In this document: positions 34,641 to 41,977 of the stretch, piece after piece
Numbering within the stretch: the stretch's first letter is position 1
Layout: each line of letters opens with the position of its first letter
Assembly (NCBI RefSeq): GCF_003334405.1
Contig: NZ_QOWM01000004.1
Source: Escherichia coli
GTDB taxonomy: Bacteria > Pseudomonadota > Gammaproteobacteria > Enterobacterales > Enterobacteriaceae
DNA: 64,000 bases
Reading direction: 5' to 3' (one strand)
The notes under the pieces: model-generated
Database searches by the model: none
What the model saw: the letters and a program-made list of their open reading frames with translations, nothing else
What the model was told of the DNA's origin: nothing
Translations under genes and position numbers: made by a program

Positions 34641-35288
<648 letters not shown>

Positions 35289-36682: not shown

Positions 36683-37198
36683 ATGAAAAAAATTGCATGT
36701 CTTTCAGCACTGGCCGCAGTTCTGGCTGTCACCGCAGGTACTTCCGTAGCTGCGACTTCTACTGTAACTGGCGGTTACGCACAGAGCGACGCTCAGGGCC
36801 AAATGAACAAAATGGGCGGTTTCAACCTGAAATACCGCTATGAAGAAGACAACAGCCCGCTGGGTGTGATCGGTTCTTTCACTTACACCGAGAAAAGCCG
36901 TACTGCAAGCTCTGGTGACTACAACAAAAACCAGTACTACGGCATCACTGCTGGTCCGGCTTACCGCATTAACGACTGGGCAAGCATCTACGGTGTAGTG
37001 GGTGTGGGTTATGGTAAATTCCAGACCACTGAATACCCGACCTACAAACACGACACCAGCGACTACGGTTTCTCCTACGGTGCGGGTCTGCAGTTCAACC
37101 CGATGGAAAACGTTGCTCTGGACTTCTCTTACGAGCAGAGCCGTATTCGTAGCGTTGACGTAGGCACCTGGATTGCCGGTGTTGGTTACCGCTTCTAA
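36683..37198 (+). CDS. ompX: Outer membrane protein X (8-stranded beta-barrel)
   Basis: MKKIACLSALAAVLAVTAGTSVA… ending …AGVGYRF. Confidence 0.95.
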   Translation: MKKIACLSALAAVLAVTAGTSVAATSTVTGGYAQSDAQGQMNKMGGFNLKYRYEEDNSPLGVIGSFTYTEKSRTASSGDYNKNQYYGITAGPAYRINDWASIYGVVGVGYGKFQTTEYPTYKHDTSDYGFSYGAGLQFNPMENVALDFSYEQSRIRSVDVGTWIAGVGYRF

Positions 37199-37218
37199 TC
37201 ACTTTGGTGATATAAAAA

Positions 37219-37248
37219 ATCCGCCTCTCGGGGCGGATTTTTGTTTTT
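37219..37248. terminator. Bidirectional intrinsic terminator shared by convergent ompX and opgE
   Basis: A-run, TCCGCC-TCTCGG-GGCGGA hairpin, T-run; opgE stop codon lies in the T-tract. Confidence 0.7.
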
Positions 37249-38830
37249 AAGGTTTCGGGTCGAAAATATCGGTTCCGAGATGGTTGTAATCCACCTTCTG
37301 TAACTGGAAGTTGGTGATGTATATCGGCCCGGCTTTCTTCTCAGATATAAACGGGTATTTGATGTTAATTTCCTTCGCTTTAATCCCCGTCCACTGGGAG
37401 AAAAAGCCTAAGAAGTCATTGGCTGAGCGGCGGGCTTTAATCACACGATGCGCTTTATCGTCGCTGGAAATGACCATAAAAGGCACCTGGAAATTTTGCT
37501 GATATTTATCATCATGGGCAAGGTATTGCACGTCTTTACCGCGCTCTTTAAAGGCCAGACCGTGGTCAGAAAAGTAAACCAGCGAGAAGCTGCTGCCGCT
37601 GTTGCGTAACTGATCGTACAGCTTGCGCAGTAAATCGTCCGTTTGCGTCATGGTATAGAGATAGCACGACGTTTCTTTCGATTGCACAAAGGTTTCGTAT
37701 TTTCCTTGTGTCCTGTCGCAGGCCTGCGGATGTGAGCCCATCAGATGTAGAACAATCAGCTGCGGTTGCGAGTGCTCTTGCGCCAGCACTTGAGCGGTCA
37801 TATCCAGTAACGCTTCGTCTTTGGTGTTTTTATCTGCTTCAAAATTACCTTCTTTCAGGAAGTACACTTCATCTGCTCGTTTGGCGATGCTGGCGATAGC
37901 GGTATCGTATTCGCCGATTTGACCCTGGTTGGAAAACCACCAGGTCTGGAAGCCCGCGCGATTTGCCAGGGTGACAAAGTTATCCTGAAACTGTGGTTTG
38001 CCATCGACAACGCGATTGAGCGTTAAGCCAAGCGATTTCTGCGTGGAGCCACTGGCGGCAATGTAGTCAGCAAATATCAAACCGTTAACGCTGCTGGCAA
38101 ACGGGGTATTGTCCCAGTGACCGCCAAAGGCACCGAGGGCATCGCGACGCGCGCTTTCACCGATCACCACCACATAGGTCTGATACTTCGGCTTAACGGC
38201 AGTGACCGTCCAGGTATCTTTCATTCCGGAAAGTTTTGCCATCCGTTCTTGCTCTTCAATCACCTCGTTATTATTGACGATGACATCCTTAGCAAAACGA
38301 AATACCGGATAGCCAGTATCTTTCAGTTTAAATACGCCACCCCAGGCCAGGTTTTGCACGGGAGCAACAAAAAATGTCGCCACACTGAATACCAGACACA
38401 GGCTGTCGAAGGTATTCCAGCGCGCTTTTTCATTCTCTTTTTTTCGCCTGATTGCTATTACGCCGAGCGCAAAAATAAATAAGCCGACCAGGTAGCTGTA
38501 CCACGGAAAAATCGTCAGGATTTCGGTCGACTCTTCCATATTGGTGGAGTGCAATGCCAGCAATGTATTGAAATTAGGCGCGCCGTAGGCCTGAGCAAAA
38601 GGGAAATAACAAGCCGCCACCAGCGAACTGACACCGACCAGAACTTTTTGTACGCGAGGCAATGTTCGCCATAGCAAAAGCAAAATAGCCGTAAACGCAG
38701 CGGTGTAGAGCAAACTGAAGGGGTAACCTAAGCCGAGGTTAATTAATAGCGACTGTAAAAAGTAGAACGCAGTCCACGGGCTAAATACCCGGCTACGGGT
38801 AACAAGCGATTCTTTGAGGGTTAAATTCAT
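37247..38830 (-). CDS. opgE: Phosphoethanolamine transferase OpgE (YbiP)
   Basis: ORF 527 aa; N-terminal TM helices plus sulfatase-like domain. Confidence 0.9.
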   Translation of the reverse strand: MNLTLKESLVTRSRVFSPWTAFYFLQSLLINLGLGYPFSLLYTAAFTAILLLLWRTLPRVQKVLVGVSSLVAACYFPFAQAYGAPNFNTLLALHSTNMEESTEILTIFPWYSYLVGLFIFALGVIAIRRKKENEKARWNTFDSLCLVFSVATFFVAPVQNLAWGGVFKLKDTGYPVFRFAKDVIVNNNEVIEEQERMAKLSGMKDTWTVTAVKPKYQTYVVVIGESARRDALGAFGGHWDNTPFASSVNGLIFADYIAASGSTQKSLGLTLNRVVDGKPQFQDNFVTLANRAGFQTWWFSNQGQIGEYDTAIASIAKRADEVYFLKEGNFEADKNTKDEALLDMTAQVLAQEHSQPQLIVLHLMGSHPQACDRTQGKYETFVQSKETSCYLYTMTQTDDLLRKLYDQLRNSGSSFSLVYFSDHGLAFKERGKDVQYLAHDDKYQQNFQVPFMVISSDDKAHRVIKARRSANDFLGFFSQWTGIKAKEINIKYPFISEKKAGPIYITNFQLQKVDYNHLGTDIFDPKP

Positions 38831-39101
38831 ATGCCACTATCGTAACAAACGCCATGTGCTTACCCTGGCGTCAAGGGTCAATACCTGCAAGAGTGCGTGA
38901 AGAGTGGAAAGGGGTCCGCATCCGCGAGCCGCAATATACGCAGGGCTGCAAGAAGATAGAGCGAGCCGCCGTTCAGGTCAACTACTGACGAACAAATCTT
39001 TTGCGAAGGGGATTGCAAATCCGACAAAAAGTGGGGTTTTTCAGACCAAAACGCGTTATGCCTGCATGAAAGCAGGAGTGAAGCGGCGTACCGCGACGCC
39101 G

Positions 39102-39230
39102 CTATTTATCGGAAGGTTTATCTTGCTGCGGTTTGTTGTTGACCATATCGCACAACATAGAGAGCAGCATTAACCGTACTTTAAAGGGAGAATGACTAAA
39201 CACGCGCATACACCTCTTGAACTCATTCAT
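39102..39230 (-). CDS. mntS: Small protein MntS (42 aa; rybA locus), absent from the ORF track because it is under 60 aa
   Basis: Manual translation of minus strand: MNEFKRCMRVFSHSPFKVRLMLLSMLCDMVNNKPQQDKPSDK, preceded by AGGAGG RBS. Confidence 0.85.
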   Translation of the reverse strand: MNEFKRCMRVFSHSPFKVRLMLLSMLCDMVNNKPQQDKPSDK

Positions 39231-39288
39231 AAGACCTCCTGACTTGCTAATCCCGTCGATCCTTGAGGGATGATTGCATTACATACAG

Positions 39289-39306
39289 ATATAGCACAGG
39301 CTATAT
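39289..39306 (-). promoter_or_regulatory. Candidate MntR operator (palindrome ATATAGC-ACAG-GCTATAT) upstream of mntS
   Basis: Palindrome resembles MntR box AACATAGC…GCTATGTT as I remember it. Confidence 0.5.
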
Positions 39307-39415
39307 TATATAGCTATTGCTAAAACGTTAATTTTTTGTACCTTCGCAACTCTGGTTTACAATGTGCGCACGAAATGAGAACGCTATGTATGCGTCACCA
39401 TAATGAGGAAGCACA

Positions 39416-39883
39416 ATGAGTCGTCGCGCAGGTACGCCAACAGCAAAAAAAGTGACGCAGTTAGTGAACGTGGAAGAGCACGTTGAAGGGTTCCGCCAGG
39501 TCAGAGAGGCGCATCGGCGCGAGCTTATTGATGATTACGTTGAGCTGATTTCTGACTTGATCAGGGAAGTGGGGGAAGCTCGTCAGGTGGACATGGCTGC
39601 TCGTCTGGGAGTTTCGCAACCGACGGTGGCTAAAATGCTTAAGCGGCTGGCAACCATGGGGCTGATTGAAATGATCCCCTGGCGTGGCGTGTTTTTAACG
39701 GCAGAAGGAGAGAAGCTGGCGCAGGAAAGCCGCGAGCGACATCAGATAGTCGAAAATTTCTTGTTGGTGTTGGGCGTCAGTCCGGAAATCGCCCGTCGCG
39801 ACGCGGAAGGCATGGAGCACCATGTTAGTGAAGAGACGCTCGACGCTTTTCGTTTGTTTACCCAGAAACACGGTGCCAAATGA
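39416..39883 (+). CDS. mntR: Manganese-responsive transcriptional regulator MntR (DtxR family)
   Basis: ORF 155 aa. Confidence 0.93.
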
Positions 39884-40998
39884 GCCTGCCTTTTTTACGC
39901 ACGCTGCAAGGCGATCGTTTTTTTCAGTTATTAATTCTTGTTGGTATCGGATTAAGCTTTTTCGTGCCCTTTGCACCGAAATCCTGGCCTGCTGCTATCG
40001 ACTGGCACACCATCATCACCTTAAGCGGCCTGATGCTGCTGACCAAAGGTGTGGAGTTAAGCGGTTATTTTGATGTGCTGGGGCGCAAAATGGTGCGCCG
40101 CTTTGCTACGGAGCGTCGGCTGGCGATGTTTATGGTGCTGGCGGCGGCGCTGCTTTCTACCTTTCTGACCAACGATGTCGCGCTGTTTATTGTTGTTCCG
40201 CTGACTATCACGCTAAAAAGACTGTGTGAGATCCCGGTTAATCGGCTGATTATTTTTGAGGCGCTGGCAGTCAACGCTGGTTCGCTACTGACGCCAATTG
40301 GCAACCCGCAAAATATTCTTATCTGGGGACGTTCTGGTCTTTCGTTTGCCGGATTTATTGCCCAAATGGCACCGCTGGCTGGCGCAATGATGCTGACGCT
40401 CCTGCTCCTGTGCTGGTGTTGTTTCCCTGGAAAGGCGATGCAATACCATACGGGGGTGCAAACACCGGAGTGGAAACCGCGGCTGGTGTGGAGTTGTCTG
40501 GGGCTGTATATCGTCTTTCTGACGGCGCTGGAGTTCAAACAAGAGCTGTGGGGACTGGTGATTGTGGCGGCAGGCTTTGCGCTGCTGGCACGTCGCGTGG
40601 TGCTCAGTGTGGACTGGACGCTGCTGCTGGTGTTTATGGCGATGTTTATCGACGTCCATTTACTGACCCAGCTTCCAGCGTTGCAAGGCGTGTTGGGTAA
40701 CGTGAGTCATCTATCTGAACCCGGGTTATGGTTAACGGCAATCGGTTTATCGCAGGTGATCAGTAACGTGCCGAGTACCATATTGTTGCTGAACTATGTG
40801 CCGCCGTCTTTATTACTGGTATGGGCGGTAAACGTAGGTGGCTTTGGGTTATTACCCGGATCGCTGGCAAATTTGATTGCGCTACGTATGGCGAACGATC
40901 GCCGCATCTGGTGGCGTTTCCATCTCTATTCAATACCGATGCTGTTGTGGGCGGCGTTGGTGGGATATGTTTTGTTAGTTATACTCCCGGCCAACTAG
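39880..40998 (+). CDS. ybiR: Putative ion transporter YbiR (ArsB/NhaD permease superfamily)
   Basis: ORF 372 aa, hydrophobic; ATGA overlap with mntR. Confidence 0.88.
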
Positions 40999-41012
40999 GG
41001 TCTGGCAAATAA

Positions 41013-41040
41013 AAAAGGCGGATTATGAGTCCGCCTTTTG
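41013..41040. terminator. Bidirectional intrinsic terminator between ybiR and ldtB (A6-GGCGGA-loop-TCCGCC-T4)
   Basis: Read in sequence. Confidence 0.65.
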
Positions 41041-41056
41041 CTTTAAGTTTTGAAGA

Positions 41057-41977
41057 TTAATTCAGACGAACCGGCATCCCGGAGCGGTTTTTAATCGCTT
41101 CATCAAGAACAACCTGGTCAACATCTGGCTGACCGGTCACTGTCTGCACGCTCTTCGTCAGGGTAATTGGCACAATTTCCTGACCTTCAAACTGGGCTTC
41201 GGTGGTAGACAGCGGGTTATGGACTTCAATATAACGGCTGCCGTCTGGCTCGGTGGTCGCTTTTACCGGCTCATCAATAAACTGTACGCGGGTACCGACC
41301 GGTACTTTCTCGAACAGGAATTTGATGTCTTCGTTACGCAGACGCACACAACCATGACTTACACGCAGGCCGATACCGAAGTTGGCGTTGGTGCCATGGA
41401 TAGCATACAGGCGACCGATATAGAGTGCATACAGCCCCATCGGGTTATCCGGACCTGCCGGAACGACAGCCGGAAGCGGTTCGCCCGCAGCGCGGTACTC
41501 TGCGTGCATTTTGGCGGTCGGCGTCCAGGTCGGGCCTGCTTTTTTACGCTCAACTTTGGTGGTCCAGTTGATAGGCGTATCTTTGCCTAACTGACCAATG
41601 CCGATCGGCAGCACGATAACGGTGTTGGTCCCTTTCGGATAGTAATAAAGACGCATCTCAGCACTGTTAATGACGATGCCTTCATGAACGGTATCCGGCA
41701 GGATCAGCTGCTGCGGAATGTTCAGTACAGTACCGCCTTTCGGCAGGAAGGTATCCACACCCGGGTTCGCTTCCATCATATTGGAAAGCCCCATCTGGTA
41801 CTCGGCGGCAAAATACTCCAGCGGCTGAGTGTTACCTTCAGGAATGGTGATCACCTGATTCTGACCAACCAGGCGACTCCCGTCGGTTGGCAGAGGATAA
41901 GTTACCGCAGAGGCGGTACTGCAAAAGCCGACAACAGCGAAGGCCGCTGCGAATAATGTTTTCAATTTCATATTCAT
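41057..41977 (-). CDS. ldtB: L,D-transpeptidase LdtB (YbiS), YkuD domain
   Basis: ORF 306 aa; catalytic SHGCVRL motif. Confidence 0.93.

Follow-up and report, generated by a model that had tools for sequence, protein, structure and literature searches.

The mntS Locus

The question raised by this locus is whether the DNA between mntR and opgE contains a gene too short for routine ORF calling and, if it does, what is controlled by the inverted repeat located immediately upstream of that gene. A first-pass annotation had proposed both a 42-codon mntS and an MntR-type operator. The window, that is, the whole 64-kb stretch analyzed here, is an E. coli K-12-like chromosomal segment colinear with MG1655, window positions being equal to MG1655 coordinates minus 813767. 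We are nearly certain that the locus is the characterized E. coli mntS with its promoter and MntR operator, where Mn-loaded MntR represses mntS, and MntS inhibits the exporter MntP. The mntS gene, its repression by MntR, and the action of MntS on MntP are already known, so nothing here is biologically new; the present analysis establishes the identity of the gene, its family membership and synteny, its coding signature, and the conservation of the operator.

The minus-strand frame at 39102..39230 encodes 42 aa plus a stop and is supported by the ORF listing, NCBIfam, RefSeq and the substitution pattern. It starts with ATG, and its translation in the ORF listing, MNEFKRCMRVFSHSPFKVRLMLLSMLCDMVNNKPQQDKPSDK, is the very peptide given by the first-pass annotation. 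The Shine-Dalgarno sequence AGGAGG is likewise confirmed, on the minus strand at 39240..39235, followed by 4 nt (TCTT) and the mntS ATG. The frame is base-for-base the same as RefSeq mntS (b4705, MG1655 852869..852997, minus strand, within the ncRNA rybA), and the mntS CDS annotated in a K-12-type genome, WP_001001761.1, maps exactly to 39102..39230. The NCBIfam equivalog model NF033226 (small_MntS, cut-off 36) matches residues 1–39 of the 42-residue product with 96 bits (E = 6.3e-28). Protein search yielded 136 MntS homologues, all with Pfam PF26599, from Escherichia, Salmonella, Citrobacter, Klebsiella, Enterobacter, Kosakonia, Kluyvera, Trabulsiella and their relatives.

Absence of this gene from the ORF track, also remarked on initially, is presumably due to its length, as 42 aa is below the default threshold of 60 aa. 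Since the 3.5 kb around mntS contain 45 ORFs of 25 aa or more, a 42-aa ORF by itself is little evidence of a gene. Length-thresholded ORF calling skips genes such as mntS, and recovery of a gene of less than 50 codons together with its operator from the letters alone is a positive control for reading of sequences.

The neighborhood is that of mntS as well. The divergent gene at 39416..39883 on the plus strand encodes the Mn-sensing repressor MntR, as seen from the RefSeq annotation and a score of 269 bits against NCBIfam NF008273 (cut-off 153), and the intergenic spacing between mntR and mntS is 185 bp. A 601-nt query across the locus has matches in 5,422 of 5,426 complete E. coli genomes, with identity of at least 99% in 4,089 cases; mntS and mntR are annotated under the match in all 12 records listed, and mntS is annotated in approximately 5,400 of the 5,426 genomes.

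Conservation of mntS as a Protein-Coding Gene

E. coli was compared with eight loci, each from another enterobacterial genus. The ybiR-mntR pair is divergent from the mntS-opgE pair in E. coli and in all eight other genera, and in each of the nine the mntS ORF is intact, stand-alone, and 41–44 aa long. A GGAGG-type motif is retained upstream of it in nine genera out of nine. The translations have in common the motifs MNE(F/L)KRC, (S/T)HSPF and ML(L/I)..(M/L)(L/I)C; the conserved residues thus comprise the N-terminal MNEFKRC, the HSPF (PF) motif, and a central hydrophobic stretch with Cys27.

Over 35 ungapped codons, 16, 7 and 28 columns are variable at the first, second and third codon positions, respectively, and synonymous changes make up 57% of the codon differences in the mntS frame vs. 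3–14% in the other forward frames. By this comparison, the substitution pattern is that of a protein-coding gene, pointing to purifying selection on mntS as a protein.

The Plus-Strand Reading Frame

The longer of the two ORFs at this place is on the plus strand (38904..39173, 89 aa, GTG start), where it is antisense to the 3′ end of mntS and the 3′ region of RybA. Its length is the one argument for it being the real gene and mntS its shadow, a possibility to which we give practically no credence. The 89-aa ORF has no NCBIfam match and is not annotated in RefSeq, and in each of the eight other genera no reverse frame of the homologous region is free of stops, the longest open stretches there being 22–62 aa; comparative data thus refute it as a gene. 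The first-pass annotation had called this ORF a shadow of mntS, which is correct in so far as the ORF is non-coding and spurious, but imprecise as to what it mirrors: only its last 72 nt out of 270 overlap the mntS CDS, and the other 198 nt face the 3′ region of RybA in antisense orientation, where the sequence is non-coding and poorly conserved (54% identity).

The RybA Transcript

The mntS frame is carried on the RybA RNA (PMC4361602), annotated in MG1655 as a 340-nt ncRNA (b4416, 852725..853064), that is, 38958..39297 on the minus strand of the window. Seven RybA species sharing one 5′ end, 205 to ~400 nt long, have been described (PMC4361602).

Two candidate structural elements are seen in the transcript. 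Immediately after mntS, starting at the last base of its stop codon, there is a hairpin GCGGCGU-CGCGGU-ACGCCGC (39083..39102, minus strand), identified from the sequence, alignment and folding, conserved in eight of the nine genera and probably representing a 3′-end or terminator stem. The other element, found by alignment folding, is a small hairpin in the mntS 5′ leader (39252..39270, minus strand), with compensatory changes in two of five predicted pairs, which is weak evidence for it. The consensus promoter and terminator scan revealed no canonical terminator at mntS. In Klebsiella, Kosakonia, Enterobacter and Trabulsiella there is a U-rich tract, TTCATTTTT, after the post-stop hairpin (region 39075–39102, minus strand). 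In E. coli the hairpin is followed by TTCACTCC, with the U-tract degraded. A weakened intrinsic terminator after mntS could explain the existence of several longer RybA species.

Annotation of a 340-nt ncRNA across the locus raises the possibility that the transcript functions mainly as a regulatory small RNA and the 42-codon ORF is incidental. Conservation of the post-stop hairpin and the two compensatory pairs of the leader hairpin are compatible with this, as is the reported influence of RybA on genes of aromatic amino-acid biosynthesis during peroxide stress (Gerstle et al., 2012, cited in PMC4361602). Still, we consider this very improbable, given the clear coding substitution pattern and the length of 41–44 aa maintained in nine genera. 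The predicted folding of the 238-nt transcript is no more stable than that of shuffled sequences (z = –0.89), and no Rfam model matched RybA in the E-value scan of 37000–41500. Furthermore, overproduction phenotypes have been assigned to the MntS protein, are Hfq-independent, and can be obtained with the ORF and its Shine-Dalgarno sequence alone on plasmid pLW112 (PMC4361602). A dual-function RybA/mntS RNA is possible, with mntS as a genuine coding sequence.

The MntR Operator and the mntS Promoter

Upstream of mntS, repeat search and conservation identify MntR box 1, ATATAGC-ACAG-GCTATAT (39289..39306), a 7–4–7 inverted repeat. It had been described as a perfect palindrome, which is true of its arms, as ATATAGC (39289–39295) and GCTATAT (39300–39306) are 100% complementary, but not of the central ACAG, which is not self-complementary; the box is symmetric at 14 of 18 positions.

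The assignment to the MntR type made from the letters alone is borne out. The core, ATAGC-N4-GCTAT, is common to the mntH, mntP and dps boxes; in box 1 it occupies 39291–39304, with the arms reaching 7 nt, and the box is centered on 39297, the annotated RybA 5′ end. The box is nearly invariant across the nine genera, and repression of mntS by Mn-MntR has been published (PMC4361602; PMC9806134). Two occurrences of this 10-base core were counted in the window of 64 kb, compared to 0.02 expected from shuffles.

Adjacent to box 1 there is a putative box 2, TTTTAGC-AATA-GCTATAT (39308..39325, minus-strand reading), found by the repeat search and tentatively assigned to MntR. It has one mismatch to the core, and its center is 19 bp from that of box 1. 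One-mismatch core matches number three in the window vs. 1.4 expected, so that box 2 alone is not statistically distinctive; its TTAGC deviation is also present in the weaker mntP box.

The likely –10 hexamer of the mntS/rybA promoter, TATAAT (39305..39310, minus strand), bridges the two boxes, with an overlap of 2 nt on the side of box 1 and of 3 nt on that of box 2, and precedes the RybA 5′ end, as annotated, by 7 nt. Because of its poor –35 element, the mntS promoter escaped the consensus promoter scan. Strict conservation is not seen for TATAAT, which is replaced by TAAAAC in Salmonella and by TAAAAT in Klebsiella.

Mean pairwise identity across the nine genera is 98% in box 1 (39289–39306), 93% in the 60-nt promoter/operator block (39281–39340), 85% in box 2 (39308–39325), and 79% in the mntS coding sequence, with 62% in the sequence towards mntR and 55% in the rest of the mntS leader. 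The resulting picture of the operator is clean, with box 1 near-invariant across genera and the weaker box 2 deviating in the same way as the weaker mntP box. The exact operator assignment is suggested by sequence comparison combined with the RefSeq RybA coordinates, the start site being taken from annotation; PMC8632737, PMC10003395 and PMC9907080 give no operator sequence.

As both boxes are within the 185-bp mntR-mntS intergenic region, they might control the divergent mntR promoter, providing for autoregulation of mntR instead of, or in addition to, regulation of mntS. A promoter-like plus-strand sequence, ATTACA-18-TATATT (39278–39307), overlaps box 1, and the invariant plus-strand TACAAT at 39358–39363 could be the mntR –10 hexamer, in which case box 2 would be placed just upstream of the mntR –35 hexamer. 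However, the center of box 1 coincides with the annotated 5′ end of RybA, the box abuts the –10 hexamer of mntS, published reporters demonstrate repression of mntS itself by MntR and Mn, and the literature search yielded no evidence of mntR autoregulation. We therefore regard control of mntR through these boxes as unlikely, if conceivable, and retain their assignment to the mntS promoter.

Other MntR-Regulon Promoters

The same core is found upstream of other genes of the regulon. In the mntH promoter it is contained in AAACATAGCAAAGGCTATGTTT. The upstream region of mntP has one exact core and one core with a single mismatch, 40 bp apart; in MG1655 they occupy positions 970–983 and 1010–1023 of the fetched upstream stretch, the weaker one being TTAGCCAAAGCTAT. 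The second exact core of the window, ATAGCACCGGCTAT (minus strand ACATAGCCGGTGCTATAC), is at 35194–35207, preceding the start codon of dps (35144) by 50 bp. This position fits the published repression of dps by MntR-Mn, stated in PMC5553809, which cites Yamamoto 2011.

A Prophage at the mntS Operator

In approximately 30 of the 5,426 complete E. coli genomes searched with the 601-nt query, the mntR-mntS intergenic region is split. E. coli AHB29 (NZ_OZ547246.1) has a P2-family prophage of ~32 kb between mntR and mntS, spanning 7548–39541 of the fetched stretch. The prophage junctions have a common core, TATAATATAGC (39310..39300), consisting of the mntS –10 hexamer and the left arm of box 1. 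The integrase lineage of this prophage is found in 30 of the 5,426 genomes, and in two divergent examples, XYEH3934 and SC477, the prophage also adjoins mntS. Upon integration, mntS retains its –10 hexamer and box 1, phage DNA replaces box 2, the –35 hexamer and the A/T-rich upstream region, and mntS becomes separated from mntR by ~32 kb. A possible MntR-like pseudo-box in the phage-derived arm is ATAGTTGATGCTTT.

The integrase and attP arm have no close relative in the phage collection searched, the best match showing 82% identity over 11% of the query, and none of the papers searched on mntS and prophage integration reports this attachment site. The P2-family attachment site in the mntS operator may be a small new lead. 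It is tentative, and in our judgment somewhat doubtful, that the mntS control region is a tandem two-dimer MntR operator (box 1 and the weaker box 2) serving also as a P2-family attB; if this is true, mntS expression in lysogens could be altered in its basal level or its sensitivity to Mn.

Recombination of the prophage within TATAATATAGC in approximately 30 genomes may also be taken to mean that the palindrome is a phage attachment core, or mere AT-rich promoter symmetry, and not a repressor site. This seems exceedingly improbable, as the palindrome is 98% conserved in eight other genera, at loci without a prophage, and its core is identical at three other MntR-regulon promoters. More plausibly, the phage exploits a conserved host sequence, and box 1 is the repressor site.

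Elements Between mntS and the Flanking Genes

Several other conserved elements have been observed around mntS. Upstream of opgE, inside the annotated 3′ part of rybA, there is a promoter-like TTGACC-17-TATCTT (38953–38981, minus strand), with both hexamers nearly invariant across the nine genera. It is probably the opgE promoter, in which case long RybA species would read through it. A conserved inverted repeat TTTGC-N10-GCAAA (39000–39019, minus strand) is located ~20 bp upstream of the TTGACC hexamer, and the opgE leader contains a conserved element CCCTTGACGCCAGGGTAAGCACATGGCG (38850–38877, minus strand) with ACCCT-N7-AGGGT inside it; neither the inverted repeat nor the leader element matches an Rfam family.

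The Rfam scan produced two sub-threshold matches, STnc40 (31.7 bits, gathering score 45) and rnk_pseudo (33.7 bits, gathering score 55), at 41011–41074 on the minus strand and 37156–37250 on the plus strand. One of the sites is just downstream of ybiR and the other near the opgE 3′ end. Membership in these families was rejected, as the scores are below the gathering scores and the sequences look like GC-stem and U-tract terminators.

Proposed Mechanism

The proposed sequence of events is as follows. A sigma-70 promoter (TATAAT, 39310..39305, minus strand) would start the RybA/mntS transcript at about 39297, producing a 67-nt leader with the AGGAGG ribosome-binding site, followed by the 42-codon ORF. 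The Mn(II)-loaded MntR dimer would bind ATATAGC-N4-GCTATAT at about –9 to +9 relative to the start site, and probably also the weaker adjacent box at about –11 to –28. Occupied sites would block RNA polymerase, such that mntS would be made only when manganese is scarce. MntS then binds and inhibits the manganese exporter MntP, keeping manganese in the cell.

Of these steps, the geometry of the sites suggests promoter occlusion and a role for box 2. Repression by MntR, translation of MntS, and inhibition of MntP rest on published experiments with the identical sequence. In particular, mntS transcription is repressed by MntR:Mn, the MntS protein is conserved and expressed, and genetic data place it upstream of MntP (PMC4361602). 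A PmntS-egfp reporter demonstrates MntR-dependent repression by Mn (PMC9806134), and MntS has been found to bind and inhibit MntP (Wright et al., 2023, bioRxiv 10.1101/2023.06.02.543501). The experiments that the first-pass annotation had proposed, tagged MntS and a Mn-dependent reporter, are thus already published.

Comparison With Known Systems

The locus does not differ from that of E. coli K-12 MntS (b4705, formerly the rybA ORF): the 42-aa sequence, the coordinates, the promoter region and the neighbors opgE, mntR and ybiR are identical, and this is the same gene.

The closest counterpart of box 1 among the operators compared is the MntR operator of mntH (AAACATAGC-AAAG-GCTATGTTT), which has the same core and inverted-repeat geometry, and both operators are at promoters repressed by Mn-MntR. 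They differ in the flanks, ATATAGC in mntS vs. ACATAGC in mntH, and in the 4-nt spacers; in addition, mntS has the second, weaker adjacent box, whereas one box was found for mntH in the 1 kb analyzed.

On the protein side, the signal peptides of SitA, a component of SitABCD manganese importers of the Rahnella/Sodalis type, are homologous to MntS according to Wright et al. (2023), who argue that the ancestor of MntS was the signal peptide of a SitA linked to MntR. These peptides share the PF motif and the link to MntR with MntS and can replace it (Wright et al., 2023). Unlike SitA, MntS is a stand-alone ORF and has lost the mature domain of SitA as well as the AXA cleavage motif; its hydrophobicity is also lower.

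As an RNA, RybA resembles dual-function RNAs of the SgrS/SgrT type, which likewise were first catalogued as small RNAs and encode a small ORF product that inhibits a transporter (analogy drawn in PMC4361602). In contrast to them, a base-pairing role of RybA is not well established, and the phenotypes of MntS are independent of Hfq.
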